Assembly: GCA_038316335.1 (NCBI GenBank)
Contig: JBBQAM010000001.1
Coordinates: forward strand, 82,247-146,246
DNA length: 64,000 nt
From: Flavobacteriales bacterium
GTDB taxonomy: Bacteria; Bacteroidota; Bacteroidia; Flavobacteriales; Flavobacteriaceae
Reading direction: 5' to 3'
Shown here: one piece after another, positions 45,871 through 61,901 of the stretch
Position numbering within the stretch: the first letter of the stretch is position 1
How the letters are laid out: every line of letters starts with the position of its first letter
Program-made: the position numbers and the translations under genes
Notes under the pieces: generated by a model
What the model was told of the DNA's origin: nothing
What the model saw: the letters and a program-made list of their open reading frames with translations, nothing else
Database searches by the model: none

Positions 45871-45887
45871 GGAAATTTATATACCTA

Positions 45888-45931: not shown

Positions 45932-45935
45932 ATTT

Positions 45936-47306
45936 CTAAATCGCTATTTCTACTATCTCATTTAGCTTCGGTAGCATACTATGCCAATTAAAGACGGATG
46001 CAAGTTTTACGCGAAGGGCATCTAACGCAGTTGGTTCCCCATGCACGAGAAATACGCGCTCCGGAATATTTTTTATGTTACTTGCCCAGTGGATCAGTTC
46101 GTCCTGATCGGCGTGCGCGGAAAGGCTTTCCAGATGCGCTATGTTGGCTTTAACGGGGACAAATTTTCCGAATAGTTTAATCTCATGTGCTCCTTCGAGT
46201 AATTGCCTTCCCCTTGTGCCTTCGGCTTGATACCCTACCAATAGTACATTGGTGGAAGCACTGTCGATCAATTGTTTCAAGTAGGTGAGCACACGGCCGC
46301 CTGTGACCATTCCGCTCCCCGCAATGACTATTTTAGGCCTGGGGTCATCGATTGTTTTCCACGTATCGGCATACGAGGTTATTATTTCAAAATGATTGCA
46401 CATTGCATGACATTCGTCGCTTGACAGGGTATGCCATTTCGGAAAATTTTCAAATACCGTTAATACATTGTTGCCCATCGGACTGTCAATAAAAAGCGGA
46501 ATGTTGGGGATGCGATTCTTTTTGTATAAGTCCCATAAAAGATACATCAGCGATTGTAAACGTTCGACCGCGAAGGAAGGTATGATCAAATTGCCCCTTT
46601 CGGTAAGTGTTTTGTTGATGAGCTGTATCAATATTTCTTCTACGGGTTCCTGAGGATGCAATTTATTGCCATAGGTACTTTCCATAAATAAATAATCTGC
46701 CCACTTGGGTCTTTCCGGGGTGCCTAACAGGAGATCGTGGATGCGTCCGATATCCCCAGAAAAAACGAATATCTTTTCGAAAATCTCAAGTTCAATAAAT
46801 GTGGCACCAAGGATATGGCCATTATACCTGAATCTAAATCTTATATGTTCGGCAAGCTGGATCCAAACGTCTTTTTCCTCAGAATGAAACAGTTTCGTGG
46901 TGCTTTCGACCTCTTCAACGGTATAAAACGGCAATGCGGGGTGATGCTTTGAATACCCTTCCTCATTTGCGCGCTTTGCTTCTTCTTCATGGATCTTCGC
47001 ACTATCCCGCAGTATAATCGTCGTTATGGCCAATGTGGGTGCTGTCCCGATGATTTTCCCCGAAAAGCCTTCTTTGACCAAGCGGGGTAAATAGCCAGTA
47101 TGATCTAAATGACCGTGTGTAAGCAACACTACATCAATTTTGGTACAATCTATGGGCAAAGGTTTCCAGTTGAGTTCCCTAAGCTCCTTCAGACCTTGGA
47201 ACATACCACAGTCGACCATGATATTTATTTCCGGAGTTTCAAGATAATGTTTCGAGCCGGTGACGGTTCCAGCAGCCCCGAGAAAATGGATCCTGACTTT
47301 ATTCAT
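45936..47306 (-). CDS. MBL-fold metallo-hydrolase of the beta-CASP (RNA/DNA-processing) type
   Basis: ORF 45936-47345. ATG at 47306 (MNKVRIHFLGAAGTVTGS) overlaps the upstream gene by 8 nt. Motifs: LLTHGHLDHTG, a beta-CASP region, and C-terminal SAHADQDEL. Confidence 0.85.
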   Translation of the reverse strand: MNKVRIHFLGAAGTVTGSKHYLETPEINIMVDCGMFQGLKELRELNWKPLPIDCTKIDVVLLTHGHLDHTGYLPRLVKEGFSGKIIGTAPTLAITTIILRDSAKIHEEEAKRANEEGYSKHHPALPFYTVEEVESTTKLFHSEEKDVWIQLAEHIRFRFRYNGHILGATFIELEIFEKIFVFSGDIGRIHDLLLGTPERPKWADYLFMESTYGNKLHPQEPVEEILIQLINKTLTERGNLIIPSFAVERLQSLMYLLWDLYKKNRIPNIPLFIDSPMGNNVLTVFENFPKWHTLSSDECHAMCNHFEIITSYADTWKTIDDPRPKIVIAGSGMVTGGRVLTYLKQLIDSASTNVLLVGYQAEGTRGRQLLEGAHEIKLFGKFVPVKANIAHLESLSAHADQDELIHWASNIKNIPERVFLVHGEPTALDALRVKLASVFNWHSMLPKLNEIVEIAI

Positions 47307-48159
47307 CGTAGACATATTTGATATTACATAGTTGACTGGCTTCATCGAGAATTTTTTTCTTTCTGACCTCTGAAATTCCCAAATGATCTAATAGGAATTT
47401 ATTTTTCTGAAGTTGCCTGTATAGAACGATATCCCGGCCTAATAAAAATGACTTTTCATGAACGGTTAATAAGCGGGTTACCGTTATTGGGTAAAGCCCC
47501 AAACGATCGATACGGTCTTTTAGGCCGTCGTTTTTCGGAAAATCCCAACTCAAAAGATGAAGTCCGACACAGGTGCCATAAATAATCGCATCTTGGGTAA
47601 AACGGGTATTTGTAACAACCATTCCATAGGCCATGTTTTTTGATTTATCGGTACCTCGTTCCCATTGCTTTTTTACATCCTGATATCTTGAATGAATATA
47701 TAATGGCACCTTTACATCACAATTTCGGCCTTCCTCGCTATGAAATTTACATTCCATGATGCTTACCTGGCCGTTTTTTTCTGCAAAGACATCTATTTCG
47801 TGCTTGACACATGCGCCGTGCATTATTTTTCCTACTTGGGTTTGATAGCCGGAATATTCAAATATGGCAGCAATGAATTTTTCAAAGGGAAAGCCGGTCG
47901 GACCTAGTTCGTAGAGGGCCTTTTTTAATTTATATTTCGAAGCGGCTACTGATCTTTTTGCTTTTAATAAGGCGAAGGCGCGATTATAGATTTCCTTAGT
48001 GGTAATGCCCTGATAAAGTTCGTCACCAATTGTATTGGTTATCTGCTTGACCAAATCTTCGTCAGCTCCACTACGTTTAAGGGACGTTCGAAGTTTATTC
48101 ATAGAGAATTTGACTTTTTCCCCTGAGGTTTTAATGATATCATAATGCGATGTTTCCAT
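47299..48159 (-). CDS. ATP-cone domain fused to a PD-(D/E)xK (Mrr-like) nuclease-fold domain
   Basis: The N-terminal ~90 aa resembles an ATP-cone (KVKFSMNKLRTSLKRSG...TTKEIYNRAFALLK). The central part HEIDVFAEKNGQVSIMECKFH fits a D...ExK nuclease core. Confidence 0.65.
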   Translation of the reverse strand: METSHYDIIKTSGEKVKFSMNKLRTSLKRSGADEDLVKQITNTIGDELYQGITTKEIYNRAFALLKAKRSVAASKYKLKKALYELGPTGFPFEKFIAAIFEYSGYQTQVGKIMHGACVKHEIDVFAEKNGQVSIMECKFHSEEGRNCDVKVPLYIHSRYQDVKKQWERGTDKSKNMAYGMVVTNTRFTQDAIIYGTCVGLHLLSWDFPKNDGLKDRIDRLGLYPITVTRLLTVHEKSFLLGRDIVLYRQLQKNKFLLDHLGISEVRKKKILDEASQLCNIKYVYDE

Positions 48160-48239
48160 AGTGGTTCTTTAAGTTGGCCCGAAAAGTTAAAGATGCATGT
48201 TCGGAAATGGCAACAAGTAGGATGCTCGCACGAATTTTT

Positions 48240-49094
48240 TCATTGGGTTAAATCGTGCATCACCAGAACTGGGATTTTTGAATGGTATCCCATTTCCTTT
48301 ACCAAAGGTTTTGATAGCATGCTGTTGAAGAAATTGTGTTTTTTAGTGATAAACGCAATCATATCACTTTCCCTACTTTCAATAAAAGCACTGATTCCCG
48401 CAGGCACCTTAAGTTCGCTAATGTTATGGTACGTATGGGAGGTGTCTTTCAAAATTTCTTCCAACAGGTCCTTGTTCGCCTGTTGTTCATGACTTAGTTC
48501 AGACTCGCGTACAATATGTAATACTCTGATGAACGCACCATGATATTTGGTAATTTCGATTAGATAATTCAGTTCTTTTCGTTTAAAGGCAGTTTTATAA
48601 TCAGTCGGAAAAACGATTTCCTTTGGTTTGATAAATCGGACTATATCGGGAATCGCCAAGACGGCACATTCAGTAACTTTTTCCATGATGTTCACGGTAT
48701 TCGTTCCAAAAACGACACTGGCAGCACCCGTCTCACCTTTGGTGCCCATGACGACGATATCGATGTCATTTTTGGCAATGGTGTCCTTTATGGCAAATAA
48801 CAGGGAGTTGAATGTTGAAATGGTATGGAAGGTATGTTTTGGATTATCATTGTGTAGTTCAAGGATATCCATTAATTTTTCAAAGTTCTCCTCTGAGGTT
48901 TTTTTTGCAGCTTCATAGGCCGGTTCCCCTGGCTCGGGAAACATCATCATGGTGTCAATCGAATAACCGTTGACTTGATACGCATGCAAATAGTAGAATT
49001 CACACACCTGATCATGGAATAGATCTAAGGCATACCGAATTGCATTCAAGGCATTCTTCGAAAAATCAGTGGGTAATAATACTCTTTTGTCCAT
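48240..49094 (-). CDS. Universal stress protein, tandem-domain type (paralogue 1)
   Basis: 284 aa. N-terminus VLLPTDFSKNALNAIRYA and ATP-loop VVMGTKGETGAASVVFGTNT, followed by a second Usp domain. Confidence 0.88.
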   Translation of the reverse strand: MDKRVLLPTDFSKNALNAIRYALDLFHDQVCEFYYLHAYQVNGYSIDTMMMFPEPGEPAYEAAKKTSEENFEKLMDILELHNDNPKHTFHTISTFNSLLFAIKDTIAKNDIDIVVMGTKGETGAASVVFGTNTVNIMEKVTECAVLAIPDIVRFIKPKEIVFPTDYKTAFKRKELNYLIEITKYHGAFIRVLHIVRESELSHEQQANKDLLEEILKDTSHTYHNISELKVPAGISAFIESRESDMIAFITKKHNFFNSMLSKPLVKEMGYHSKIPVLVMHDLTQ

Positions 49095-49118
49095 AACGAA
49101 CCATTTAGGGTTATGGGA

Positions 49119-49162
49119 TAAAATTACTTCCTGGACCGCCCGTTTACTATGACAAATATCAG
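49119..49162 (-). promoter_or_regulatory. Candidate Crp/Fnr-type operator plus -7 box; promoter of usp 48240-49094 (probably continuing into 47299-48159 and 45936-47306)
   Basis: The plus strand reads ATGACAAATATCAG at 49149-49162, which is CTGATATTTGTCAT on the minus strand. After a 22-nt gap the minus strand reads TAATTTTA (49126-49119). The palindrome overlaps the stop codon of the upstream usp. Confidence 0.6.
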
Positions 49163-49995
49163 TCTGTGGTAGGAATGATCAAAAAGGGAATATCAAGGTC
49201 AAATGCCATTCTTTTTACAACGGGCTCCCTACTAACCTTTTTTAAAAAACTATGTTCATAATTCACCATTGCGAGCATATCGATATTCAGTTCATCCAAA
49301 AATGTGTGGATCGAATTGGCCTTTGTCTTAAAAAGAGGCATCCAGTACATTTTATACTCAAAAGGCAAGAGGTATTTCAATAGGATGCTTTTATTCATTT
49401 CTTGTGTAGCATCCAATACTTCTTCTTCGTGGATGTGCATTAAACTTATTTTAGAGCGATATTGCTTGGCAAGAAAAAGTAACGGCTGTAATAATTCGGC
49501 ATCGTACGAATGATGATAGTCAGTAACAAAGGCAATTTCGCTGGGAGGTTTAAAATCAATTTCTTTTGGAATGGTCAAAATAGGGCATTTTTTTATACTG
49601 GATATAGTATCCAAGGCATTGCTTCCTAAAAAAATAGCTGCGAGCTCTGAACCGCCACTGTTACCCATTACCACTAAATCAATCTGCCGGTCTTCGACCT
49701 CTTTAATCAAAATCGACTGCAGTTCTCCGAAATGCGAGATGTACTCAAAAGTGTGTTTGGTTTTGGGAAAATCCAATTTAATTCGGTGTACAAGATTTTG
49801 GAGTCCTTCAAGTGACTCCAGCTTTAGTTGATCGACCCTGTCTTTTTCTACTAGGATTTCCTTTAAGGCAGTATTTGCGTCATAGGCATTCAATAAGAAA
49901 AAGTTGGTAGCTTTTCCTTTCAACAATTTTACGGCATAAAAAAGAGCGCTATAGGCATTGTTGGAAAAATCTGTGGGCACAAGTATATTTTTCAT
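49159..49995 (-). CDS. Universal stress protein, tandem-domain type (paralogue 2)
   Basis: 278 aa. ILVPTDFSNNAYSALFYA and VVMGNSGGSELAAIFLGSNA. Confidence 0.88.
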   Translation of the reverse strand: MKNILVPTDFSNNAYSALFYAVKLLKGKATNFFLLNAYDANTALKEILVEKDRVDQLKLESLEGLQNLVHRIKLDFPKTKHTFEYISHFGELQSILIKEVEDRQIDLVVMGNSGGSELAAIFLGSNALDTISSIKKCPILTIPKEIDFKPPSEIAFVTDYHHSYDAELLQPLLFLAKQYRSKISLMHIHEEEVLDATQEMNKSILLKYLLPFEYKMYWMPLFKTKANSIHTFLDELNIDMLAMVNYEHSFLKKVSREPVVKRMAFDLDIPFLIIPTTD

Positions 49996-50006
49996 GTGGC
50001 AAAGTA

Positions 50007-50846
50007 TTATTGATGTTGTACGATCATAAATGGTATGGTAACATGGAAGCCTAATTTCTGAATGACCGGCTCTAAAAACAAGCGCTCTAAAAAAGTGTGT
50101 TTATGCTGCACCATCACCAATAGATTTATTCGATCCTTCACAAGGAAACCATCGATAGCTTCGATAATTTCCTGATCCGGCAGCATCTGTAATGAATGAG
50201 AAGTCATGTCGAGCATCCGTTCTAATTTTTTCTTATTCTTTTCTTGTTGTTCACTTAATTTATAACCCGATGAAACATGCAGGATTTCGATATGTGATAA
50301 GTGGCTCTTGGCAATGGTGATTAATTCGTTAAAAGATGCTGTCCTGTAGTCAATTTCATAGTCAGTCGGGAAAAGTATTCTTTTGGGGTTTTCATATTTA
50401 AAAGTCGCAGGTACCGCTATGACCGGACAATTCACCTTTTTAATGACATGAACGGTATTGGTGCCCATCAGGATTTCTTTTGCCCCGGTTGCCCCATGTG
50501 TTCCCATAATTACGATATCCGCTTTTTCGTTTATTAAGGTGTTTGAAATTTCATCGACCAACATATTGAAAGCCGCATGCAGCAAAAAGGTATGCTTCGG
50601 ATTTTTGAACTGCTTTTTTATTTTAGCCTTTAGTTTTTGCAATTTTGAAAGACTGTCCTCCCGGTATATATCTCCAAGACCGATTTGACCGGGGCTGTGT
50701 AGTACATATTCGGCCTTATAAATGGCAGGGGTAAAGGTATGCAGCAGGTAAAATGTTGAAGTCTCCTTCTTGTATAGTTCTAAGGCATACACAATAGCGT
50801 TATAGGCGTTTTCGGAAAAATCGGTAGGAAGTATTATTCTTTTCAT
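50007..50846 (-). CDS. Universal stress protein, tandem-domain type (paralogue 3)
   Basis: 279 aa. IILPTDFSENAYNAIVYA and VIMGTHGATGAKEILMGTNT. Its stop is 11 nt upstream of the start of paralogue 2. Confidence 0.88.
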   Translation of the reverse strand: MKRIILPTDFSENAYNAIVYALELYKKETSTFYLLHTFTPAIYKAEYVLHSPGQIGLGDIYREDSLSKLQKLKAKIKKQFKNPKHTFLLHAAFNMLVDEISNTLINEKADIVIMGTHGATGAKEILMGTNTVHVIKKVNCPVIAVPATFKYENPKRILFPTDYEIDYRTASFNELITIAKSHLSHIEILHVSSGYKLSEQQEKNKKKLERMLDMTSHSLQMLPDQEIIEAIDGFLVKDRINLLVMVQHKHTFLERLFLEPVIQKLGFHVTIPFMIVQHQ

Positions 50847-50913
50847 CGCAAAAAACAGTTAGTTTATAAGACGGTCTTATTAGGAAGGTGGCATTATTAT
50901 AGTTTGGAAAGTG

Positions 50914-51759
50914 TCATCTTGCTACATTTTGTAATACTAAAAATGGGATCTTGATATGAAGGCCGATCTTGTCAATGGTCGATTTGTAAAGCATATCCTC
51001 CATATAGGAGTGCCTAGAATTAACGATAATGAGCATATCGATTTGGTTGTGTAAAATATACTTCGTTATCGCAATCGTCTTATCTTTTTCCTCTGAGGTC
51101 TCAAAACGCAATTTTTGTTTTTGCAGACATTCCTCCAAAAAGTATTTATTATCTTCTTGACGATGTGAGAGGTGTTCGAGGGGATCAATGTACAATAAAT
51201 GTATATTCGATCGAAAAGAACCGGTCAATTCACCCAATAATTTTAGTTCCCGTCGATTATATGGTACCATATAATTGGTAGGGAAGAGGATTTCCCGTGG
51301 GGCATTATATTCATAATTCTCCGGAATTGCTAGAACAGGGCAATGAACATATTTTAGCACTTGTAAGGTATTGCTGCCAAACGTAATTTTTCGGTCATTG
51401 GTGCTACCTCGAGTTCCCATGACCACAACATCGACATTCCTTTCATTGACTAAATCGTTTAATTCATCGATTAATAGGCCAAAGGCTGGAATGATTTCAA
51501 ATGTATGATGGGGATTTGGTGAATAGGACACGATTTCCGAATGTAACCTTAAAAGATTCTCTTCAGATTTTTTAAAAGTGGCTTCCTTAAGTAATTCGTG
51601 CTTATTTCGCTGCAGAGAGGTATCCTGCTGATATACTTCATCAGCATAAGCGTGCAGAATGGTAAATTGGCTTTTCTCATACTTAAATACCTGACATGCA
51701 TATTTTAGTGCATTAAAGGCATTCTCGGAAAAATCGGTGGGCACCAAAATCTTGCGCAT
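50914..51759 (-). CDS. Universal stress protein, tandem-domain type (paralogue 4)
   Basis: 281 aa. ILVPTDFSENAFNALKYA and VVMGTRGSTNDRKITFGSNT. Confidence 0.88.
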   Translation of the reverse strand: MRKILVPTDFSENAFNALKYACQVFKYEKSQFTILHAYADEVYQQDTSLQRNKHELLKEATFKKSEENLLRLHSEIVSYSPNPHHTFEIIPAFGLLIDELNDLVNERNVDVVVMGTRGSTNDRKITFGSNTLQVLKYVHCPVLAIPENYEYNAPREILFPTNYMVPYNRRELKLLGELTGSFRSNIHLLYIDPLEHLSHRQEDNKYFLEECLQKQKLRFETSEEKDKTIAITKYILHNQIDMLIIVNSRHSYMEDMLYKSTIDKIGLHIKIPFLVLQNVAR

Positions 51760-51784
51760 GTTTGTTACTATTTTTGAAATATTT

Positions 51785-51857
51785 CAAAATTACCGGCAAT
51801 GGACTTATAAAACCATGACATTCGTCAGTTGCATTCTTCAACCTTTTTATAAATTTG
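51785..51857. promoter_or_regulatory. Shared operator with two divergent -7 boxes (usp 50914-51759 on the minus strand, trxA on the plus strand)
   Basis: The palindrome ATGACATTCGTCAG lies at 51815-51828. On the minus strand TAATTTTG (51792-51785) follows after a 22-nt gap. On the plus strand TAAATTTG (51850-51857) follows after a 21-nt gap. Confidence 0.6.
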
Positions 51858-51876
51858 TACTGTAATTTATAGTCAG

Positions 51877-52176
51877 ATGAAAAGTAGTTTCCAAGAGATA
51901 ATTTCCTCCAAAAACCTTGTTCTAGTTGATTTTTCTGCAGAATGGTGTGGGCCCTGTAAAACATTGGGGCCTATTTTGATCCAAGTGAAGGACGAATTGA
52001 AGGATCGTCTGAAAATCGTAAAGATCGATGTAGACAAGAATCGTTCCTTATCCGAGAAATATGAAGTTAGGGGCGTGCCTACAATGGTCCTTTTCAAGGA
52101 GGGCAGACAAATTTGGAGGCAATCGGGCGTTGTACAAAAAAATGACATCGTCAACATCGTGAAATCCCATCTTTAA
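51877..52176 (+). CDS. trxA: Thioredoxin
   Basis: 99 aa with the WCGPC active site. Confidence 0.92.
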   Translation: MKSSFQEIISSKNLVLVDFSAEWCGPCKTLGPILIQVKDELKDRLKIVKIDVDKNRSLSEKYEVRGVPTMVLFKEGRQIWRQSGVVQKNDIVNIVKSHL

Positions 52177-52245
52177 GGGTTCATGATTCTAAGTTCGGGT
52201 TCGAAAGTATTGAGCTCAAGCTTGTAAGGGGCCAATTCGCCCAAT

Positions 52246-53094
52246 TCACTCATGCAATACTAGAAACGGAACCTTTGTATGGTAGCTTATTTTCTCAATG
52301 GTCGGTCGAAACAGGATGCGCTGAAAAAAATTGAGGTTCTTTGCGACCATAGCGATCATATCGATTTCCCTGCTCTCTGTGAAGCTTTGAACAGCCGCAT
52401 CGAGGTCATTACCTCCAATCGAATGAAAACTATGATCGATATCAATCAGATAGTCGTTTAAAAAATCCTTGTTTTTTTGTTGCTCATCAAGGAGCTCCGC
52501 TTTTTGAGTAGTGAGATGTAAAATGCGTACGGTCGCATTGTGAAGCAATGCCATGCTAATTAGGGTATTCAATAGGCGAATATCATAACTGATATGATAA
52601 TCGGTCGGAAAGGCTATTTCCTTGAGACCCAAATAAATCGCCTCACTGGGTATGGCCAAAAGCGGGCATTTAATTTTTGTAATCGTATCGCCGGTATTAC
52701 TACCGACTATTGCCTTTTTGAGACCGCCGGCACCTTTCGTTCCCATGATGATCATGTCGATCTTTTTTTCGGTTGATACCCTTTTTATGGTGTCTATAAA
52801 ATAATCGTGTACCGCAATAGTTTCAAAAGAGTGTTTTGTGTTGAAGGGGAGTTTTTCGATTTTTCCTAGCAACTTTTGAAGATTTTCCTTGCTTTCCTTT
52901 AAGAGGGACTCCCGATAAATTTCCGATGCCTCCCGGACGGCAGTACCGGGACCTGAATATGGGGAAATGGGGTCTACATGTAGTAGGTAAAATGTGCAAC
53001 TTGATTTTTTAAATAGTTCAAGGCCGTATTTTAGGGCATTCCAGGCATTTTCTGAAAAGTCTGTGGGAACGAGTATGCGTTGCATCTTGGTCAT
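52246..53094 (-). CDS. Universal stress protein, tandem-domain type (paralogue 5)
   Basis: 282 aa. ILVPTDFSENAWNALKYG and IIMGTKGAGGLKKAIVGSNT. Confidence 0.88.
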   Translation of the reverse strand: MTKMQRILVPTDFSENAWNALKYGLELFKKSSCTFYLLHVDPISPYSGPGTAVREASEIYRESLLKESKENLQKLLGKIEKLPFNTKHSFETIAVHDYFIDTIKRVSTEKKIDMIIMGTKGAGGLKKAIVGSNTGDTITKIKCPLLAIPSEAIYLGLKEIAFPTDYHISYDIRLLNTLISMALLHNATVRILHLTTQKAELLDEQQKNKDFLNDYLIDIDHSFHSIGGNDLDAAVQSFTESREIDMIAMVAKNLNFFQRILFRPTIEKISYHTKVPFLVLHE

Positions 53095-53110
53095 AATTTT
53101 GAATAATGCC

Positions 53111-53154
53111 CAATATTAAGCAACCTAATCGCAACATAAAATGATGATTGTCAT
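53111..53154 (-). promoter_or_regulatory. Candidate Crp/Fnr-type operator plus -7 box; promoter of usp 52246-53094
   Basis: The plus strand reads ATGATGATTGTCAT at 53141-53154. After a 22-nt gap the minus strand reads TAATATTG (53118-53111), one mismatch to TAnnTTTG. Confidence 0.55.
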
Positions 53155-53182
53155 AATTGAAAATAGACGGCATCGGAACGCT

Positions 53183-54238
53183 TTACTGAAAGATATGCTC
53201 GAGTTTGTCGCTGTCCAGTATTTTGATGTTCCTGTCCTTGATGTCGATAAGTCCTTCTTTTTTGAAGGCAGAGAGGGTGCGAATCAAAGTTTCAGTTGCC
53301 ATTCCGGCAACATTGGCCAAATCGCTTCGCAAAACGTGCAGGTTGCCTTCGGGATCTTTTTGAAGGCTTTGGGCAAATTTCAGCAGGGTACTAGCCGTTT
53401 TCTGGCGAACGGTGCCATAGGCCATCTGCAATAATTGCTCTTTTGCCTCTAAAAGATTTTCAGAAAATATTTTCATCAATTCCATGCTCAGTTGGTGGTT
53501 TTCTTGGAGAAGCAGACACAGTTTCTCGTTAGGAATTCCCACCAATTTAGTAAGTTCAATGGCCGAGGCAGATTCGCTATACGAAAGTCGTCGTGCGAAT
53601 GAGGAAAAACCAAAAAAGTCATCTGGTTTATAAATGCCGGTAATGAGTTCCTTGCCGGTTTCATCTAATTTGTGGGTTTTCACAAGGCCCTTAAGCACGA
53701 GATATACAGTAGTGGCATTCATGCCCTCCTGATAGATGTTCTCACCCGATTCATAGGTATATGACTTACCATTGTCATCAATGAAATTTTTCATTTCATC
53801 AATAGTATGCATGCTTTTTAGCGCATTATTTGTTTTCGTATTGAAATTGATATGGGGTACCTTATAAAGTTTGATTTTGGCCAAACGGCTCTTTATGGCC
53901 CCAATTAATTCGTGTTCGTCAAAAGGTTTGGTCAAATAATCATCTGCGCCTAGTTCCATACCTTTCCGAATGTCTTTATACTCGTTTTTCGCGGAAAGAA
54001 AAATAAAAGGAATATGTTGGGTATCTTGTGTTTGGGCAAGGGCTTCCAAGACGCCATAACCATCTAATTCGGGCATCAAAATATCACAAAGAATGATGTC
54101 GGGTCGATGCTGTTTGGCCGCTTCAATTCCTTTTTTGCCATCCGCGGAGGCAATAACCCTATAATTCGAAAGCTCTAATAACTCCTGGATATTCTCCCTT
54201 AAAATCGAGTCGTCCTCTATCAGCAATACGGTGCACAT
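53183..54238 (-). CDS. Hybrid response regulator: CheY-like receiver + cNMP-binding-like domain + Crp/Fnr-type HTH
   Basis: Receiver features: E8-D9-D10, D52 in IILCDILMPELDG, K104 in LTKPF. These are followed by a Crp-like beta-barrel (VYLVLKGLVKTHKLDETGKELITGIY) and the HTH SDLANVAGMATETLIRTLSAFKKEG. Confidence 0.88.
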   Translation of the reverse strand: MCTVLLIEDDSILRENIQELLELSNYRVIASADGKKGIEAAKQHRPDIILCDILMPELDGYGVLEALAQTQDTQHIPFIFLSAKNEYKDIRKGMELGADDYLTKPFDEHELIGAIKSRLAKIKLYKVPHINFNTKTNNALKSMHTIDEMKNFIDDNGKSYTYESGENIYQEGMNATTVYLVLKGLVKTHKLDETGKELITGIYKPDDFFGFSSFARRLSYSESASAIELTKLVGIPNEKLCLLLQENHQLSMELMKIFSENLLEAKEQLLQMAYGTVRQKTASTLLKFAQSLQKDPEGNLHVLRSDLANVAGMATETLIRTLSAFKKEGLIDIKDRNIKILDSDKLEHIFQ

Positions 54239-54479
54239 ATTCCATATTTTAAGTTATTGGGAAGTCAACACTTTCGTTGCATGCCAACAATGCTCAATTG
54301 GGTACATTGATTTCGAAAGAGAGACTCGCCTAATAGTACATTTTAAAAATTTACACTGCCTTTGAGGCTGTTGGAAATTATAGTAATTTAAGGATTTTAT
54401 TGCCTCTGTTTGACATTTTATGACACACTTAACATACCTCAGTCTTCTTACGACTTAATTTGGTCGAAAAGTCATGTAC

Positions 54480-54523
54480 ATGATAAAGGTCATTTTTCAA
54501 TTCACGCCCAGCCGATATTTTTG
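54480..54523 (+). promoter_or_regulatory. Candidate Crp/Fnr-type operator plus -7 box; promoter of cbpA-cbpM
   Basis: ATGATAAAGGTCAT at 54480-54493, a 22-nt gap, then a perfect TATTTTTG at 54516-54523. The cbpA ATG is at 54588. Confidence 0.6.
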
Positions 54524-54587
54524 AGCCCCAAGCCAGAATTTGAAGTTGGTCGAACCAAAACCTTTTAAGCAAGAGTACGATTAGAAA

Positions 54588-55481
54588 ATGGAATATATAG
54601 ATTATTATAAAATACTTGGCGTACCAAAAAATGCCACTGGGCAGGATATCAAAAAGGCCTATCGAAAAATGGCCCGCAAATATCATCCCGATATAAATCC
54701 CAATAACGCTGAGGCCGAACAAAAATTCAAGGAAATCAATGAGGCCAATGAAGTATTATCCGATCCTGAAAAGCGCAAAAAATATGACCAGTATGGCAAG
54801 GATTGGCAACATGCCGAGGAATTTGAAAAGGCACGTAGCCAACAAAGTTCGCGTAGGGCCTCAAATCAACAGTATTCCGGGGATTTCGGAGGGAATGATT
54901 TTTCCGATTTCTTCGAAACCATGTTCGGTGGTGCACGTGGTGGATATTCCGGGGGTAGTCAGGTGAAATTCCGGGGTCAGGATTTTAATGCGGAGCTTAA
55001 GTTACAACTACGCGATGTTTATACGTCCCATAAACAGACGTTGACCGTGAATGGCAAGAACATCCGGATTACGATACCAGCTGGCATCGAAAATGGCCAG
55101 ACCATTAAAATAAACGGACATGGTGGGCCAGGTCGTAACAATGGACCTAATGGGGACCTTTTTATAACCTTTTCGATCGAGAACACGACCCCGTTTAAGA
55201 GAGATGGCATCAATCTTTATAAAAATGTAGATCTTGATCTGTATACCGCGGTATTGGGTGGGGAACTAATGGTAGATACATTTGATGGTAAAGCCAAATT
55301 AAAAATCAATCCCGAAACGCAAAATGGTACCACCGTCAAATTGAAGGGAAAGGGCTTTCCAATCTATAAGCGGGAAGGTCAGTTTGGGGATCTTTTTATC
55401 ACCTATACCGTCAAAACGCCAACAAATTTATCCCCTAAGGAGATCGAACTTTTTAAGGAACTTGCCGCTATCAAAAAATAA
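54588..55481 (+). CDS. cbpA: DnaJ-class co-chaperone without zinc finger (CbpA-like curved-DNA-binding protein)
   Basis: J domain DYYKILGV...KYHPDINP, a G/F-rich linker, and two DnaJ C-terminal beta domains. No CxxCxGxG repeats. Confidence 0.85.
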
Positions 55482-55488
55482 TGGAATT

Positions 55489-55779
55489 ATGAAGCGTACC
55501 GATTTTATAGCCGTAACCGATTTTTGTGCCAGCCATAATATATCACATGCTTTTATCGTCGAACTTAAGGAATATGGTCTTGTCGAGGTCGTTGAGAGCG
55601 GAAGCCTATTGTATCTGCCGTTGGATGAACTTCCAAAAACAGAAAAAATAATTCGTATGTTTTCGGATCTGGATATTAACTTGGAGGGTATTGAGGTCAT
55701 TACGCGTCTTTTGACGCATCTTGAAGAACTTCGAAACGAAATGAGACACCTTCGGAATCGACTCGGTTTATATGAGTAG
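55489..55779 (+). CDS. cbpM: Chaperone modulator CbpM-like (MerR-type HTH) protein
   Basis: ATG at 55489, internal to ORF 55384-55779, gives a 96-aa protein MKRTDFIAVTDFCASHNISHAFIVELKEYGLV. It starts 8 nt after the cbpA stop. Confidence 0.7.
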   Translation: MKRTDFIAVTDFCASHNISHAFIVELKEYGLVEVVESGSLLYLPLDELPKTEKIIRMFSDLDINLEGIEVITRLLTHLEELRNEMRHLRNRLGLYE

Positions 55780-55959
55780 TTGCCACTACAAAAGCACTCC
55801 CAGAAACAATCTCTTTAGGTGTTGTCAGTTTTCTTTATGTTACGGAATATTGAATGCTTGTTTCGATCAAGGTGGCCCAAATCATTTCCCAGTGTATGAT
55901 GGAAGATTTCCGAAGCGTGTGCCAGCGAATAACCTCTGATCTTCCTGAAAATTTCCTTC

Positions 55960-56003
55960 ATGACTTAGGTCATTTCGAAGCCTATAATATTGCTTTACCT
56001 TTA
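55960..56003 (+). promoter_or_regulatory. Candidate Crp/Fnr-type operator plus -7 box; promoter of 56029-56241 (and probably 56307-56720)
   Basis: Perfect palindrome ATGACTTAGGTCAT at 55960-55973, a 22-nt gap, then TACCTTTA at 55996-56003. The ATG is at 56029. Confidence 0.6.
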
Positions 56004-56028: not shown

Positions 56029-56241
56029 ATGAAGGTAGTTGCCAAAGTACAGGACCTAACGAAAGACCTTAGCAAAAATGTTATCAGTAGAAATCTTAGT
56101 CGCATTTTGGATATTCGCATTTTAGAGATCGATACCGAAAATAGTACCATTACTTTTCTATATGACAGTGGTCTGGCCTTTGAAAAGGCAAAGCGCGAGC
56201 TGTGGCGTATCGGATATCCCATTCTGCAATGTATTACCTAG
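56029..56241 (+). CDS. Small ferredoxin-fold (HMA-like) protein lacking the CxxC motif
   Basis: 70 aa. The beta-alpha-beta-beta-alpha-beta periodicity and the C-terminal ...AKRELWRIGYPI align with the HMA protein at 60619-60891 (...VKRQLKDLGYPS). The position of CGGC is occupied by TKDL. Confidence 0.45.
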   Translation: MKVVAKVQDLTKDLSKNVISRNLSRILDIRILEIDTENSTITFLYDSGLAFEKAKRELWRIGYPILQCIT

Positions 56242-56306: not shown

Positions 56307-56720
56307 ATGAAATCATCACAAAAAGTTGGGAACGCATTTTATCAAAATCTTGGTAAACTTTTCTATGCAGTTGCATCGGTTGATAAAAAAGTAGCTCCCA
56401 AAGAGATAGAAAAGCTCAAAGCCGATGTACGCAAATACTGGCTTCCAATTGATGCTGATGAGGACGAATTTGGCACTGATGCGGCACATCAAATTGAAAT
56501 CGTCTTCGATTGGCTACTGCATGAAGAGAAGGATAGTGCGCGATGTTTTGACGATTTTATGGAGTTTTATTTTGACCATCCCCATAAATTCAGTACTGAA
56601 ATTAAACAACTTACCTGGGAGACTGCCAATGGTATTGCCGCCTCTTTTGCGGGCAAGAATAAATCAGAAGTGATCGTACTCGCTAAATTAAAGAAAGCTT
56701 TAAAAAATACTGAGGTCTAA
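56307..56720 (+). CDS. TerB-like helical protein (tentative)
   Basis: 137 aa. FYQNLGKLFYAVASVDKKVAPKEIEKLKADV resembles the TerB/co-chaperone DjlA N-terminal fold pattern. No search was performed. Confidence 0.45.
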   Translation: MKSSQKVGNAFYQNLGKLFYAVASVDKKVAPKEIEKLKADVRKYWLPIDADEDEFGTDAAHQIEIVFDWLLHEEKDSARCFDDFMEFYFDHPHKFSTEIKQLTWETANGIAASFAGKNKSEVIVLAKLKKALKNTEV

Positions 56721-56828: not shown

Positions 56829-57647
56829 ATGGATTTCCTTCAGATATTAGGGTATATAGGTGCATTAATGATCGGAATCACTCTTGGCCTCATCGGAGGT
56901 GGAGGTTCTATTTTGACGGTTCCTATCTTTGTCTACCTTCTTTCGATCAATCCTGTTGTGGCGACTGGTTATTCGCTCTTTGTAGTTGGCATGACCTCGA
57001 TGGTAGGGACGGTACAAAATATTCGAAAAGGGCTGGTCGATTTCAAAATGGCCTTTGTTTTTGCGATTCCTGCATTCATTGCGGTCTATATCAACCGAAG
57101 GTATGTCGTACCCCTGATTCCGGAAAACCTATTTAGTTTTAATGGGTTACTAGTTACAAAAGATATCGGAATCATGGTATTTTTCGCACTCCTTATGCTA
57201 GCGGCTTCCATTTCAATGATACGCGGAAAGGGCCAAGTGCTTGATAAAGAACGTGCAAATCGGCGCTCAAATATGATGACGATAATGGCCGAAGGATTTC
57301 TAATTGGCGCAATAACCGGACTCGTAGGTGCGGGAGGCGGATTTTTGATTATTCCTGTTTTGGTAGTCATGGCAAAATTGCCCATGAAAAATGCAGTTGC
57401 CACGTCACTGCTGATCATTGCTATCAATTCACTGATCGGCTTTATAGGCGATATTGAAACCATGACCATTGATTGGCCATTTTTATTGGGTTTCATTGCT
57501 ATTTCGATTTCTGGAATTTTTATGGGGATGTGGATTGGTAAGTCAATCGATGGCGATAAGCTTAAAAAGGGTTTCGGATGGTTTGTACTGGTAATGGGTA
57601 TTTATATCATTTATAAGGAGCTTTTTATTTTGTTTGCAAATGGCTGA
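56829..57647 (+). CDS. Sulfite exporter TauE/SafE family membrane protein
   Basis: 272 aa with about 8 TM segments and duplicated G-rich motifs GLIGGGGSILTVP and GLVGAGGGFLIIP. Confidence 0.85.
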   Translation: MDFLQILGYIGALMIGITLGLIGGGGSILTVPIFVYLLSINPVVATGYSLFVVGMTSMVGTVQNIRKGLVDFKMAFVFAIPAFIAVYINRRYVVPLIPENLFSFNGLLVTKDIGIMVFFALLMLAASISMIRGKGQVLDKERANRRSNMMTIMAEGFLIGAITGLVGAGGGFLIIPVLVVMAKLPMKNAVATSLLIIAINSLIGFIGDIETMTIDWPFLLGFIAISISGIFMGMWIGKSIDGDKLKKGFGWFVLVMGIYIIYKELFILFANG

Positions 57648-57686
57648 TATAAATCATACGCTATCACACCATAAAATGTAAGCTTT

Positions 57687-57730
57687 GTAACCTAAGTTAC
57701 CTTCAAAAACTTGAATACATCGTAATTTTA
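57687..57730 (+). promoter_or_regulatory. GTAAC-N4-GTTAC operator plus -7 box; promoter of the persulfide dioxygenase-rhodanese gene
   Basis: GTAACCTAAGTTAC at 57687-57700, a 22-nt gap, then TAATTTTA at 57723-57730. The ATG is at 57759. Confidence 0.6.
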
Positions 57731-57758
57731 AATCAGAAATATTTAATCATAAGGTGTT

Positions 57759-59174
57759 ATGCATGTAGAACAGATTTATACCGGATGCTTGGCACACGCT
57801 GCCTATTATTTGGAAAGTAAAGGTGAGGCGGCCATTTTTGACCCGCTTCGAGAAGTAGAACCTTACATTGCTAGGGCGGCAAAGGACAAGGCCAAAATAA
57901 AATATGTGTTCGAGACCCATTTTCACGCCGATTTTGTGAGTGGTCATTTGGATCTTAAGAAAAAAACAGGTGCAGAGATTGTTTTTGGCCCAACTGCAAG
58001 ACCTGGGTATGACGCCATAGTTGCGAAGGATAACCAGATTTTCAAAGTAGGGGATTATCAGGTAAAAGTGATCCATACCCCTGGGCATACCATGGAAAGT
58101 ACGACGTATCTTTTAATCGATGAAAACCAAAAAGAACATGGTATTATTACGGGAGACACCTTGTTTATTGGGGATGTAGGTCGACCAGACCTTGCACAGC
58201 ACGTGGTTTCGGAACTTACCGAGGAGAAATTGGCAGGTTACTTGTTCGATTCCTTAAGAAATAGGATCATGCCATTGCCAGATGACCTTATAGTGTATCC
58301 CAACCATGGTGCCGGTTCTGCGTGTGGAAAAATGATGAGCAAGGAAACGACCGATACGCTGGGCCATCAGAAAAAAGTAAACTATGCCCTTCGGCCCGAC
58401 ATGACCAAAGATGAATTCATTAAAGAGTTGCTTACCGGATTGACCAGGCCCCCTGGTTATTTTCCGCAAAACGTTTTAATGAATATAAAGGGGTATGACA
58501 GCTTGGATACCGTCATGGATCGGGCCAAAACCCCGTTATCTGTTGACGCCTTTGAGGCCGCTGCCAACGAAACGGGAGCCTTGATGCTGGATACCCGTGA
58601 GGCCGTTGATTTCGCCAAAGGCTTTATCCCGAATAGCATCAACATTGCTCTTGATGGTAATTTTGCACAATGGGTAGGCGAAATGATTCCCGATGTGAAG
58701 CAGGAAATACTATTAATTACCTATCCAGATCAACAGGAAGAAACGATTACCCGACTTTCGAGAGTTGGGTATGATCATGCCGTGGGTTACTTGAAGGGAG
58801 GTTTTGAGGCCTGGCAAAAGTCAGGAAAGGAATTTGAGACCATTAATAGGATTACGGCCAAGGAATTCGAAGCAGTTTATTCGGCCGAAAAGCCCTTGAT
58901 CATTGATGTCCGAAAGAAAAGCGAATTCGATTCCGAACATGTGATAGGCGCCATAAACGTGCCATTGAACGAAATCAATCGGCACTTATCACAATTTCCA
59001 AAAGATAGGTCCTTTATACTCCACTGTGCAGGGGGATATCGCAGTATGATTGCGGCATCTATACTAAAGCAGCGTGGCTGGGTGAACTTGGTTGATGTGA
59101 TAGGGGGTTTTGATGAAATTAAAAAGACGGGCATAGCAAAGACAGCCTATGTATGCCCGACCACACTTCTATAA
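57759..59174 (+). CDS. MBL-fold persulfide dioxygenase fused to two rhodanese domains
   Basis: ETHFHADFVSGH and HTPGHT metal ligands of the ETHE1/glyoxalase-II type. These are followed by rhodanese modules, the last with the active-site loop HCAGGYRS. Confidence 0.85.
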   Translation: MHVEQIYTGCLAHAAYYLESKGEAAIFDPLREVEPYIARAAKDKAKIKYVFETHFHADFVSGHLDLKKKTGAEIVFGPTARPGYDAIVAKDNQIFKVGDYQVKVIHTPGHTMESTTYLLIDENQKEHGIITGDTLFIGDVGRPDLAQHVVSELTEEKLAGYLFDSLRNRIMPLPDDLIVYPNHGAGSACGKMMSKETTDTLGHQKKVNYALRPDMTKDEFIKELLTGLTRPPGYFPQNVLMNIKGYDSLDTVMDRAKTPLSVDAFEAAANETGALMLDTREAVDFAKGFIPNSINIALDGNFAQWVGEMIPDVKQEILLITYPDQQEETITRLSRVGYDHAVGYLKGGFEAWQKSGKEFETINRITAKEFEAVYSAEKPLIIDVRKKSEFDSEHVIGAINVPLNEINRHLSQFPKDRSFILHCAGGYRSMIAASILKQRGWVNLVDVIGGFDEIKKTGIAKTAYVCPTTLL

Positions 59175-59332
59175 AAACGATAAATGCCATCTTAGAATTT
59201 AAGAATTCGAAAGTATAGACAATGAATTGAAATAAGGAATATCCTTAATGGGATCGTATTTAAGATACCTGCTAAAATGCATGAGGGTACTTTCTTGTAA
59301 ACGATGCTAATAAGATAATAAATAAATGAATC

Positions 59333-59998
59333 ATGGAAACAACAGACGTAAAACCAACAATAATGCCCCGAATCGGGGATATCGCGCCCGATTTTGAGGC
59401 CGTGACTACAAAAGGTAAAATTAAATTATCAGAATATGCCAAAGACAAATGGTTGGTCATGTTCTCGCATCCCGCTGACTTTACGCCCGTTTGTACGACC
59501 GAAATGAGTGGCTTTGCCTTGCGGAAAAAAGAGTTCGATGCCTTGAAAACAGAACTTCTGGGACTTAGTATCGATAGTATTCATGCCCACCTTGGGTGGG
59601 TCAATAATGTGCGTGAGAAAACCGGAGTGTATTTTGACTTTCCCATAATAGCAGATATCGACATGAAGGTGTCTAAACTCTATGGGATGTTGCAGCCGAA
59701 CGAAAGTGAGACTGCCGCCGTACGTGCCGTTTTCTTTATTGATCCTTTGAAAAAAATTCGCCTGATCATGTATTACCCTTTGAATGTGGGTAGGAATATG
59801 AATGAAATTTTAAGGGTCTTGGAAGCCTTGCAGACTTCCGATAAATATAAGGTCGCCATGCCCTTGGATTGGAAAAAAGGAGATAAAGTGATCGTGCCAC
59901 CGCCAAAAACCTTGGATGAGATGAATACCAGGATGCAAGACAAGTCGATCGAATTGGTAGATTTTTATCTGGCCAAGAAGGAACTGAATTATAATTGA
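59333..59998 (+). CDS. Peroxiredoxin, 1-Cys (Prx6) type
   Basis: FSHPADFTPVCTTE peroxidatic-Cys motif; 221 aa. Confidence 0.92.
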   Translation: METTDVKPTIMPRIGDIAPDFEAVTTKGKIKLSEYAKDKWLVMFSHPADFTPVCTTEMSGFALRKKEFDALKTELLGLSIDSIHAHLGWVNNVREKTGVYFDFPIIADIDMKVSKLYGMLQPNESETAAVRAVFFIDPLKKIRLIMYYPLNVGRNMNEILRVLEALQTSDKYKVAMPLDWKKGDKVIVPPPKTLDEMNTRMQDKSIELVDFYLAKKELNYN

Positions 59999-60019
59999 TT
60001 TTTAGTTGGTTGTTGTAGG

Positions 60020-60052
60020 AAACGGTCATAGACTCTTTTGGCCGTTTTCTTT
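60020..60052 (+). terminator. Probable terminator after the peroxiredoxin gene
   Basis: AAACGGTCA (60020-60028) pairs with TGGCCGTTT (60039-60047) with one G-U pair, followed by the T-rich TCTTT. Confidence 0.5.
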
Positions 60053-60084
60053 AGTTGCGCCACAAATCCTTAAAACAAAAAAAT

Positions 60085-60429
60085 ATGTCATTCTTAAGTA
60101 ATTTATTTGGAACGGTAAACAACACGTCTGATAAAATAGAAATATTGGACACGGTAGCCTATGGTAAGGCTATTTCAGAAAAGAAAGTGCAATTGGTAGA
60201 TGTGCGAACTGTTGCTGAATATCGCAGTGGCCATATAAAAAATGCCATCAACATCGATTTTTTTAATTCGGCCGATTTTGTAAGGAATTTTGAAAAATTG
60301 GATAAAGAAAAGCCTGTCTACGTCTATTGTCGTTCAGGCGCAAGGAGTCAAAAGGCCGCCCGAAAATTAGTGGGATTGGGTTTTTCACAGATTTACGACT
60401 TGGCAGGAGGCTTTATACGTTGGAAGTAA
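60085..60429 (+). CDS. Single-domain rhodanese (sulfurtransferase)
   Basis: ORF 60055-60429; ATG at 60085 (MSFLSNLF) is preferred. Active-site loop YCRSGARS. Confidence 0.85.
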   Translation: MSFLSNLFGTVNNTSDKIEILDTVAYGKAISEKKVQLVDVRTVAEYRSGHIKNAINIDFFNSADFVRNFEKLDKEKPVYVYCRSGARSQKAARKLVGLGFSQIYDLAGGFIRWK

Positions 60430-60618
60430 GGACAAAACCAAAGCAGGCATCAATTTGAATTGTTCACAGTATCCCTGTACCCATTGAATTTGTGGTATTC
60501 AAGTGGTGTATCTAATGGCAAGTGTACTAAAGAAAAAGGCTTTTGGGAGTACTGTTAAGAGATTTTATGCCTTTCGAAAGTCAGCGTAACATTTTAAATA
60601 ATGAATAAATAGGTACCA

Positions 60619-60891
60619 ATGAAGACATCTATCAGAGTGCAGAATTTGAAATGTGGCGGTTGTGCCACGTCCATTCGTTCCAAGCTCACTGAATTGGAGT
60701 ATGTGTCGGAGGTAACCGTTAGCGTCGAATCGGCAATGGTTTCCTTTGTTCATAATGATATCGATGATGCCCTTAGGGTGAAGCGCCAATTGAAAGATTT
60801 GGGATATCCGTCTATCGATACCAAGAAAACCAGGTCCGCCAAGATGATTTCTTTCTTCAGTTGCACCAAAGGGAAAATAGCAAGCTTATGA
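60619..60891 (+). CDS. Heavy-metal-associated (HMA) domain protein with CGGC motif
   Basis: MKTSIRVQNLKCGGCATSIRSKL... is a ferredoxin-like HMA fold. Its stop codon overlaps the next gene's start (ATGA at 60888-60891). Confidence 0.75.
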   Translation: MKTSIRVQNLKCGGCATSIRSKLTELEYVSEVTVSVESAMVSFVHNDIDDALRVKRQLKDLGYPSIDTKKTRSAKMISFFSCTKGKIASL

Positions 60892-61901
60892 AACATATAC
60901 TCCTCGTTACATTGATTTTTGTAGTATCAGGCTGTAAAGACGCCACTAAATCAGTAGCCATACCTGAACCTACTGAAAGTAGAACGAACGAAGTCACAGA
61001 GATCGACCGGCTCTATCCCGGAAAGAAAATTTTGGAGAACGAATGCTATATCTGCCATAACCCGAAGGCATCGCAATCGAATATGATCGGGCCGCCTATG
61101 ACGGCCATTAAATTGCATTATATTGACGCTACCACAACAAAAGAACAATTTGCAGAGGCACTTTTACAATGGATAAATGACCCGGAACAAGCAGGGAAAA
61201 TTCCAGGGGCCCATAAAAGGTTTGGAAGCATGCCGTATATGCCGAAGCCTGATACCATGATCCGTCAGGTGGCAGATTACCTATATGATAATGATGTCGA
61301 ACGACCCGTTTGGTTCGACAAGGAGTTTGAGGCCCGCTATATAAAGGGCAATGGCCAAGGGATGGGTATGGGTGTGTTCAAAGAATGGACCGCTCCCGAT
61401 TCTGAAACAGAATATGCTCAAAGAGGGCTTGAATATGTCAAGAAGACCCAAGCGGTTTTGGGAAAAAATTTAGTCAAGGCGATCCAGGAAAACGGCACGG
61501 CAGGTGCCTTACGATACTGTAATATCCAGGCCATAAAATTAACGGATAGTATTTCTGTGATGCACAATGCCATTATTAAACGGGTTAGCGATAAGCCTAG
61601 AAATGCCAATAATTGGGCAAATGCAGATGAATTGAGCTATATAGAGGCCTTTAAGGAGCTGGTTTCTGCCAAAGTTGAGGTACAACCGATCATAAAAAAT
61701 GATAATGGGGACGTTTATTTCTATTATCCCATCACAACCAATACCATGTGTCTGCAGTGTCATGGCAAACCCAATGATCAAATCGCTCCGGCGGTTATGA
61801 CGGCATTAAGTACCATCTATCCAAATGACAAGGCGACCGGGTATGATGTAAATGAAGTACGCGGTATGTGGAGCATTGTTTTCGATGACAGCAATGAATA
61901 G
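60888..61901 (+). CDS. Lipoprotein with N-terminal c-type cytochrome motif and C-terminal DUF3365-like heme domain
   Basis: ATG at 60888 gives the lipoprotein signal MKHILLVTLIFVVSGC. There are two CxxCH motifs: CYICH, with a downstream Met candidate, and CLQCH in the C-terminal DUF3365-like part. Confidence 0.65.
   Translation: MKHILLVTLIFVVSGCKDATKSVAIPEPTESRTNEVTEIDRLYPGKKILENECYICHNPKASQSNMIGPPMTAIKLHYIDATTTKEQFAEALLQWINDPEQAGKIPGAHKRFGSMPYMPKPDTMIRQVADYLYDNDVERPVWFDKEFEARYIKGNGQGMGMGVFKEWTAPDSETEYAQRGLEYVKKTQAVLGKNLVKAIQENGTAGALRYCNIQAIKLTDSISVMHNAIIKRVSDKPRNANNWANADELSYIEAFKELVSAKVEVQPIIKNDNGDVYFYYPITTNTMCLQCHGKPNDQIAPAVMTALSTIYPNDKATGYDVNEVRGMWSIVFDDSNE

Follow-up and report, generated by a model that had tools for sequence, protein, structure and literature searches.

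The described system that comes closest to the one considered here is the FixL-FixJ-FixK pathway of rhizobia and Caulobacter, in which FixJ, a response regulator with a LuxR-type helix-turn-helix (HTH), activates a separate fixK gene, whose product has no sensor of its own and is under FixLJ control. The FNR protein of E. coli and Aliivibrio depends on the acquisition of a [4Fe-4S] cluster through an N-terminal group of Cys residues, and in Mycobacterium tuberculosis the haem sensor kinases DosS and DosT act on the response regulator DosR, which governs many Usp genes, alpha-crystallin/HSP20 and stasis functions. The sensing and survival of oxygen depletion in aerobic Bacteroidota (marine and soil Flavobacteriia, Cytophagia and Sphingobacteriia) are poorly understood. 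In Flavobacterium psychrophilum, a transcriptome study found the cbb3 oxidase to be induced under oxygen limitation and did not name the regulator (PMC9723704), and full-text searching of the literature found no functional description of receiver-Crp/Fnr regulators, nor of a FixL-like system in Bacteroidota. The present analysis concerns a gene of this receiver-Crp/Fnr type, located on the minus strand at positions 53183-54238 of a 64,000-nucleotide stretch of DNA from a Flavobacteriales bacterium (assembly GCA_038316335.1, contig JBBQAM010000001.1; hereafter the window), within an island of genes for Usp proteins, a thioredoxin and a CbpA-like DnaJ protein.

The reading that we consider fairly probable is that the product of this gene (hereafter the regulator) is a phospho-controlled class II activator of the island, fed in relatives by a FixL-like kinase, and that its targets form a low-oxygen stasis regulon. 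Several features recall FixL-FixJ-FixK: the partner kinase of the relatives carries a FixL-type haem-PAS domain with the proximal His, the output domain is FixK/FNR-like, the predicted palindrome has a TGA-N6-TCA core, and FixG-, FixI- and HemN-like proteins are among the predicted targets. Unlike in that pathway, receiver and FixK-like module are parts of a single protein, so that one phosphotransfer step would replace the transcriptional cascade; in addition, the outer operator base is A or C and not T, and the kinase is missing from the window. The likeness to FixK proper is confined to the output domain. With FNR of E. coli and Aliivibrio the regulator shares the barrel, the dimerisation helix and the HTH (Foldseek E ~1e-13; phmmer E=1e-15), a corresponding recognition helix (ETISR in FNR, ETLIR here) and a class II-type operator placement, whereas a receiver and a disordered linker of roughly 20 residues stand in place of the Cys cluster, so that [4Fe-4S] sensing is not expected, and the equivalent of FNR S212 is Ile. 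The parallel with DosS/DosT-DosR is functional and consists of a haem sensor kinase, a response regulator and a set of Usp, HSP20 and stasis genes; the mycobacterial sensors are GAF and not PAS domains, and DosR has a LuxR/NarL-type HTH, another DNA motif and a non-homologous output domain. The first-pass annotation, made from the letters of the window and borne out in all its checkable parts, had drawn this parallel as an analogy only; low oxygen being the likely signal, the analogy is closer than it proposed. The locus thus offers a concrete candidate, made up of a haem kinase, a fusion regulator, a well-defined 14-bp operator at a fixed position and a compact regulon that comprises genes for Usp proteins, chaperones and ribosome hibernation. 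If true, this would represent a clean natural case of a Crp/Fnr protein in which a receiver has taken over from the Fe-S or cAMP switch.

A receiver fused to a Crp/Fnr module

The open reading frame (ORF) starts with ATG and encodes 351 amino acids (aa), matched by three Pfam domains on the minus strand, all of them scoring well over the gathering thresholds. In particular, residues 4-115 (53894-54229) form a receiver with D52 as phospho-acceptor (Response_reg, E=2e-29), residues 161-246 (53501-53758) a cNMP-binding-like beta-barrel (cNMP_binding, E=1e-14) and residues 279-348 (53195-53404) a Crp-type winged HTH (HTH_Crp_2, E=3e-14). The fusion and its receiver residues E8-D9-D10, D52 and K104 had been read correctly in the first-pass annotation, and the domain search that it had named as a check on the Crp-type HTH supports this assignment; S82 and Y101 are also present. 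In an alignment of 19 family members, D9, D10, D52 and K104 are invariant together with T315, E316, T317, I319 and R320 of the recognition helix, and 31 out of 31 orthologues keep D9, D52, S/T82 and K104, with D10 replaced by N, S or H in distant ones. The regulator is a bona fide member of both the receiver and the Crp/Fnr superfamilies. Cys51 (54086-54088), which immediately precedes D52, is invariant in the 19-sequence alignment and present in 30 of 31 orthologues from four orders, and a redox role for this residue is conceivable.

This domain combination is already catalogued in sequence databases. Homologues of the same architecture number in the thousands and are named only 'response regulator'; the best 120, from Maribacter, Arenibacter, Pricia, Cerina and their relatives, all have the same three domains. 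When one genome per species was scanned, 29 related loci were obtained (labelled L0xx below), 28 of them with a full-length relative of the regulator, and these span the Flavobacteriales, Sphingobacteriales, Cytophagales and Chitinophagales, while every match of the scan outside Bacteroidota is limited to the receiver. The taxonomic survey suggested by the first-pass annotation thus places the architecture in four orders of a single phylum. In one long-contig assembly the regulator was called as a 285-aa protein without the HTH (L087, 9272-10129); since 350 aa are encoded in a short-read copy of this locus, the shorter call is probably due to a frameshift in the assembly.

Comparison with named families of regulators provides no ready assignment. 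Against NCBIfam, residues 144-349 match the Fnr model (E=3e-20, 72.6 bits, cut-off 228) and the FixK model (E=2e-18, 66.6 bits, cut-off 300) below threshold, and the N-terminus matches only receiver-containing regulators, again sub-threshold; no equivalog model at NCBI thus covers this protein. An identity with FNR is ruled out by the N-terminus, which is occupied by the receiver and carries no FNR-type Cys cluster, as had been observed from the letters; FixK is ruled out by the possession of a receiver, and CRP by the lack of a conserved cAMP site. Specifically, R216/R217 fall at or near the phosphate-binding R82 of CRP in the BLASTP alignment, this position varies among K, N, D, E and other residues within the family, and the equivalent of E72 is an alignment gap or F211, so that the conserved cAMP contacts (E72, R82 and S83) are not found. 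Control by cAMP was considered and rejected, since the phosphate-binding Arg is not conserved across the family.

The recognition helix, GMATETLIRTLSAF, contains the run A-T-E316-T-L-I319-R320. HMMER pairs it with GLTVETISRLLGRF of Aliivibrio fischeri FNR, in agreement with the alignment of ETLIR with the FNR helix ETISR proposed earlier, and BLASTP pairs it with GCSRETVGRILKML of E. coli CRP. The Glu and Arg that contact bases in FNR and CRP are kept in the regulator, Thr stands at the position of CRP R180, and all 31 orthologues have E316 and R320. Nearly all of these follow the pattern [ST]-E-[ST]-x-I-R, with FNR-like ETVSR or ETISR in three Sphingobacteriales. The best PDB sequence match is a Crp/Fnr regulator of Porphyromonas gingivalis (PDB 2gau), which covers the C-terminal 200 residues (E=4e-17); like the other single-module Crp/Fnr proteins of Bacteroidota it has no receiver, and its recognition helix differs (NMTVSNAIRTLS).

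An AlphaFold2 model, made with the 19-sequence alignment, gives the receiver a (beta-alpha)5 fold with a predicted local distance difference test (pLDDT) score of ~90 or higher over most of the domain, a disordered linker at residues 127-140 (pLDDT <50), and a Crp/Fnr body with pLDDT mostly 70-90, in which helix 263-291 precedes the HTH. In a Foldseek search of the PDB the top 50 hits are all Crp/Fnr proteins of ~200-230 residues that match the C-terminal part only, and neither these nor a sequence search yielded a PDB chain spanning both halves of the regulator.

Operators and promoters of the island

The pattern TGAY-N4-GTCA occurs 14 times in the window, compared with 3.07 occurrences expected. 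Seven distinct sites are intergenic, and all of them lie in 45374-55972, within 8 kb of the regulator. Every intergenic site is followed, 22-23 nt downstream and toward a gene, by TAnnTTT[G/A], with an ATG 16-64 nt further on, and no such composite promoter is present in the remaining 53 kb of the window. TAnnTTTG is the "-7" promoter element of Bacteroidota, known from sigma-A promoters of Bacteroides. Counted from the first base of the -7 box, the centre of the palindrome lies 29.5 nt upstream. This would place it at about -41, where activators such as CRP and FNR sit at classical class II promoters.

The seven sites make up eight promoters. The operator of usp5 (ATGACAATCATCAT, 53141-53154, minus strand), separated by 23 nt from its -7 box TAATATTG, lies 29 nt past the regulator stop, and that of the cbpA-cbpM unit (ATGATAAAGGTCAT, 54480-54493, plus strand), with 23 nt before TATTTTTG, is conserved in L081. 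A palindromic operator at 51815-51828 (site 51816), with a -7 box on either side, is shared by trx on the plus strand and by the usp4-usp3-usp2 operon on the minus strand (51759 down to 49159), a divergent layout also found in L081, L084 and L087. On the minus strand, the operator at 49149-49162, with TAATTTTA, precedes usp1 and probably also serves the ATP-cone/Mrr-like and beta-CASP RNase genes, and those at 45918-45931, with TAGTTTTA, and at 45373-45386, with TAAATTCG, precede a 143-aa gene and a pair of genes of 147 and 214 aa, respectively. Finally, the operator at 55960-55973 on the plus strand, with TACCTTTA, precedes a small ORF and a 137-aa gene. A further TGAY-N4-GTCA match inside usp2 (49511-49522) lacks a suitably spaced -7 box and probably arose by chance.

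The consensus of the composite motif, derived from 60 promoters in 11 Flavobacteriaceae loci, is (A/C)TGAY-N4-RTCAT. The T after TCA, which the search pattern did not require, is found in all 60 sites, and the bases that follow RTCAT are T-rich without the G of the -33 TTTG element. The combination of a poor -33 element with an operator is the pattern that would be expected of an activator-dependent promoter. A repressor role was considered and rejected, because the sites cover neither the -7 box nor the start site and are placed upstream of the former, beside an imperfect -33 element. The distal outer base of the operator is A or C, being T in just 2 of the 60 sites; therefore, the box is not the canonical TTGAT box of FNR. 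An attempt to attribute the A at this position to Ile319, in place of Ser212 of FNR, failed, as the three Sphingobacteriales with ET[VI]SR helices keep TCAT sites.

Over 586 kb of regulator-bearing loci the composite promoter occurs 63 times, against 0 in the reversed sequence and a mean of 2.05 in 100-nt block shuffles. A site directly past the regulator stop, corresponding to window position 53142, is present in nine loci of the Flavobacteriales and Sphingobacteriales (L001-L005, L007, L009, L011 and L029), L026 has two sites within ~120 bp of the stop, and all eight promoters of the window are conserved in L081. In three Sphingobacteriales (L007 11042-12991; L009 11033-13509; L029 11059-12972) the genes behind the post-stop site encode a 2-hydroxyacid dehydrogenase and a radical-SAM enzyme of HemN size, and not Usp proteins.

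Among 52 predicted first genes behind composite promoters in the related loci there are 14 Usp, 3 HSP20 and 2 thioredoxin genes, 2 genes for S30AE ribosome hibernation factors (HPF), 2 for P-type ATPases, 2 for PAS kinases, and 1 each for a FixG-like Fer4_18 protein and a radical-SAM enzyme of HemN size, and in a Maribacter locus (L084) the island adjoins fixG-fixH. Moreover, Flavobacteriales loci keep the island genes beside the regulator (Usp, trx, cbpA/cbpM, ATP-cone, beta-CASP, and the 143-, 147- and 137-aa genes), so that the co-occurrence with Usp genes that the first-pass annotation had asked about is seen in these Flavobacteriales relatives.

Around the regulator itself, no operator architecture precedes its own start, as had already been noted: the nearest site (54481), 243 bp upstream, has a -7 box that faces cbpA. 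A sigma-70 promoter scan of the surrounding region gave nothing over chance with the E. coli consensus, which is unsuited to Bacteroidota, and a terminator scan of the same region found none between the regulator and usp5.

The operators could in principle be read by another Crp/Fnr regulator encoded outside the window, such as an FNR- or FixK-like paralogue, with the fusion protein regulating something else or only fine-tuning the island. The missing operator before the regulator gene would agree with this, as would the TGA half-site core, which many Crp/Fnr proteins share, and the fact that only 64 kb of the genome are visible. We nevertheless regard this explanation as rather unlikely. A profile of the family matches a single one of all stop-to-stop ORFs in the window, that of the regulator, which is thus the only Crp/Fnr gene, and also the only receiver gene, there and lies amid the operators, as first described. 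In addition, every Flavobacteriaceae locus examined has composite promoters together with the regulator, and in two orders one of the sites comes straight after the stop codon of the regulator gene. A standard FNR would also be at odds with an outer base that is so seldom T, unlike that of TTGAT. The evidence that links the regulator to the operators is circumstantial, but its several lines agree with one another.

The probable partner kinase of relatives and its absence from the window

In 24 of the 29 loci, drawn from all four orders, a gene for a PAS-HisKA-HATPase_c kinase of ~400 aa lies directly upstream of the regulator on the same strand, often overlapping its start; no membrane segments were found in this kinase. 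The PAS domain of a Cytophagales kinase (L008) matches the haem domain of FixL from Bradyrhizobium (B. japonicum) with E=2e-32, including the stretch LMPEPDRSxHDxYI, and for a Flavobacteriaceae kinase (L087) the haem domains of FixL and DosP are the only PAS-only PDB matches (E ~2e-9). The proximal His of FixL is conserved in all 27 kinases compared. By homology and by this residue the PAS domain can be assigned to the FixL type, and haem binding and O2 specificity are predicted for it. Since the normal partner of the family is an adjacent FixL-type haem-PAS kinase, the likely signal is low oxygen. The kinase adjacent to the regulator in Arenibacter (L082/L083, 7955-9829) is a multi-PAS protein of 613-624 aa, compared with the single-PAS form of ~410 aa, and a composite promoter lies upstream of it, so that the operon may be autoregulated there.

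FixL-type and DosP-type haem PAS domains also bind nitric oxide (NO) and carbon monoxide (CO). This has a bearing on a further alternative, namely that the regulator does control the island in response to a signal other than oxygen: the haem-PAS kinase might respond to NO, CO or redox state, the barrel might bind a small ligand, or acetyl phosphate might report the energy state. The equivalent of FixL R220, kept in 15 of the 27 kinases, is M, L or I in the other 12; the barrel is retained and conserved even though the cAMP-contact residues are not; and a sulfide-oxidation cluster is always adjacent to the island. The targets found in relatives point the other way, as they include the low-oxygen genes for FixG/CcoG-like proteins, a radical-SAM enzyme of HemN size and a FixI-like P-type ATPase, and one locus adjoins fixG-fixH; we hold a non-oxygen signal to be unlikely.

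In the window, the position taken by the kinase gene in relatives corresponds to the 349-bp gap between the regulator and cbpA (54239-54587). At this position L087, L085 and L084 carry a gene for a kinase of 406-411 aa (L087 7772-9272; L085 7769-9301), and the order of genes in L087 is close to that of the window: sulfide cluster, cbpM and cbpA, then, divergently, the kinase, the regulator, a usp gene, trx and four usp genes. A tblastn search with the syntenic kinase found no remnant of it in the window, the 349-bp gap included, and a profile built from 24 kinases gave no match at E<=10 among all stop-to-stop ORFs of the window. The kinase-less gap is common to the window, L081 (regulator 94% identical), L088 (82%) and L089 (80%). 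The presence of the kinase in syntenic relatives and its absence from this clade of four genomes indicate that the orphan state is derived, by secondary loss. In other words, the term 'orphan' given to the regulator in the first-pass annotation holds for the window, in which it had rightly found no histidine kinase gene, and describes a local condition in a family whose members usually adjoin a kinase.

A regulator that has lost its kinase might be a stranded relic, unphosphorylated and either inactive or constitutively weak. The absence of a kinase between cbpA and the regulator in the four genomes, and from the window altogether, is what such a relic would show. The pattern of substitution is not: the ratio of non-synonymous to synonymous substitution rates (dN/dS) of the regulator between the window and L081 is 0.196, inside the range of 0.06-0.22 of neighbouring genes, and none of the 20 substitutions falls at a catalytic residue or in the recognition helix. 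D9, D10, D52, S82 and K104 are intact, as is the helix; the kinase-less layout persists across regulators that are only 80-94% identical to one another; and all operators are conserved in L081. A relic is therefore, in our judgement, very unlikely. As the regulator is under purifying selection despite the loss of its kinase from the locus, its phosphate presumably comes from a kinase encoded at another place in the genome. Two substitutions are common to the four kinase-less regulators, A18Q in helix alpha-1 (97% of 117 other members have A) and E107D after beta-5. Receiver regions around alpha-1 and after beta-5 generally determine the pairing of kinase and regulator, and the two substitutions can be taken as weak evidence for a change of partner.

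Taken together, activation of the island would proceed as follows. The haem-PAS kinase would turn active once O2 leaves the haem, as in FixL, and would then phosphorylate D52 of the regulator. By analogy, dimerisation of the receiver may favour the DNA-binding dimer, a role played in FNR by the acquisition of the [4Fe-4S] cluster, and the dimer would bind the 14-bp palindromes (A/C)TGAY-N4-RTCAT centred at about -41. As the operator takes the place of a good -33 element, we propose that the regulator recruits RNA polymerase as a class II activator. Eight units of the window would thereby be turned on, that is usp5, usp4-usp3-usp2, usp1 (probably extending to the ATP-cone/Mrr-like and beta-CASP RNase genes), trx, cbpA-cbpM and three units of small unassigned genes. 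Usp proteins, chaperones, thioredoxin and RNases would together make up a programme for stasis at low oxygen, to which relatives would add HSP20, a ribosome hibernation factor and accessory genes for cbb3 oxidase and haem.

A number of observations weigh against this reading. The predicted template modelling score (pTM) of the AlphaFold2 model is 0.48, so that the packing of the receiver on the Crp/Fnr module is not defined; with no defined interface, the mechanism of activation has been guessed from analogous systems. In distant orders, fewer strict composite motifs lie near the regulator gene, and the operator there may be different or differently spaced. Several Crp/Fnr paralogues per genome are usual in flavobacteria and, with only 64 kb of the genome in view, another paralogue could read the sites. 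The R220 position varies among the kinases, as described above, and the best 120 kinase homologues include no entry from the contig of the 94%-identical relative.

A broader and decidedly more tentative proposal, which we consider possible, is that of a phylum-wide, one-step oxygen pathway in Bacteroidota, leading from a soluble FixL-type haem kinase to a receiver-FixK/FNR-like fusion and from there to a DosR-like hypoxic stasis regulon (Usp arrays, HSP20, ribosome hibernation factor and HemN/FixG/FixI). In the Maribacter-like clade the kinase would have been lost from the locus and the regulator rewired to another input, a change marked by A18Q.

Genes of the island and its surroundings

The five usp genes of the island all encode two-domain Usp proteins on the minus strand: usp1 (48240-49094), usp2 (49159-49995), usp3 (50007-50846), usp4 (50914-51759) and usp5 (52246-53094). 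The thioredoxin gene trx (51877-52176) lies on the plus strand. The CbpA-like DnaJ protein is encoded by cbpA (54588-55481), which forms with cbpM a unit spanning 54588-55779, the product of cbpM being a CbpM-like MerR_2 protein.

Beyond usp1 lie the ATP-cone/Mrr-like gene (47299-48159) and, overlapping it, the beta-CASP RNase gene (45936-47345). This pair of an ATP-cone/Mrr_cat-like protein and a beta-CASP RNase (45936-48159) accompanies the Usp island also in L002, L005, L085 and L088. The RNase matches the NCBIfam model of Cas14 (type VII CRISPR) with 367 bits, far under the cut-off of 800 bits. The remaining genes on this side have no family assignment: the 143-aa gene (45439-45870) has homologues in the islands of L005 and L021, and the 147-aa and 214-aa genes (44202-45301) have theirs in L002 and L005. 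On the other side of the island the small ORF (56029-56241) is followed by the 137-aa gene (56307-56720), likewise without a family assignment, homologues of which in L001 and L002 adjoin the kinase/regulator pair. For these unassigned island genes NCBIfam was uninformative. The small ORF weakly resembles the copper chaperone CsoZ (E=0.002); the start annotated in its relatives, which would give 88 aa, would overlap the operator at 55961, so that the ATG giving 70 aa fits the promoter better.

The neighbouring sulfide/persulfide cluster (56829-62612) encodes TauE, a persulfide-dioxygenase-like MBL-rhodanese protein, a 1-Cys peroxiredoxin, a rhodanese and a Tll0287-like cytochrome, and no composite promoter precedes its genes. 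It adjoins the island throughout this clade (L081 1-7408; L087 1-3955; L089 1-3391), and in L081 it runs on into a sulfide:quinone-reductase-like gene and a cytochrome bd oxidase.

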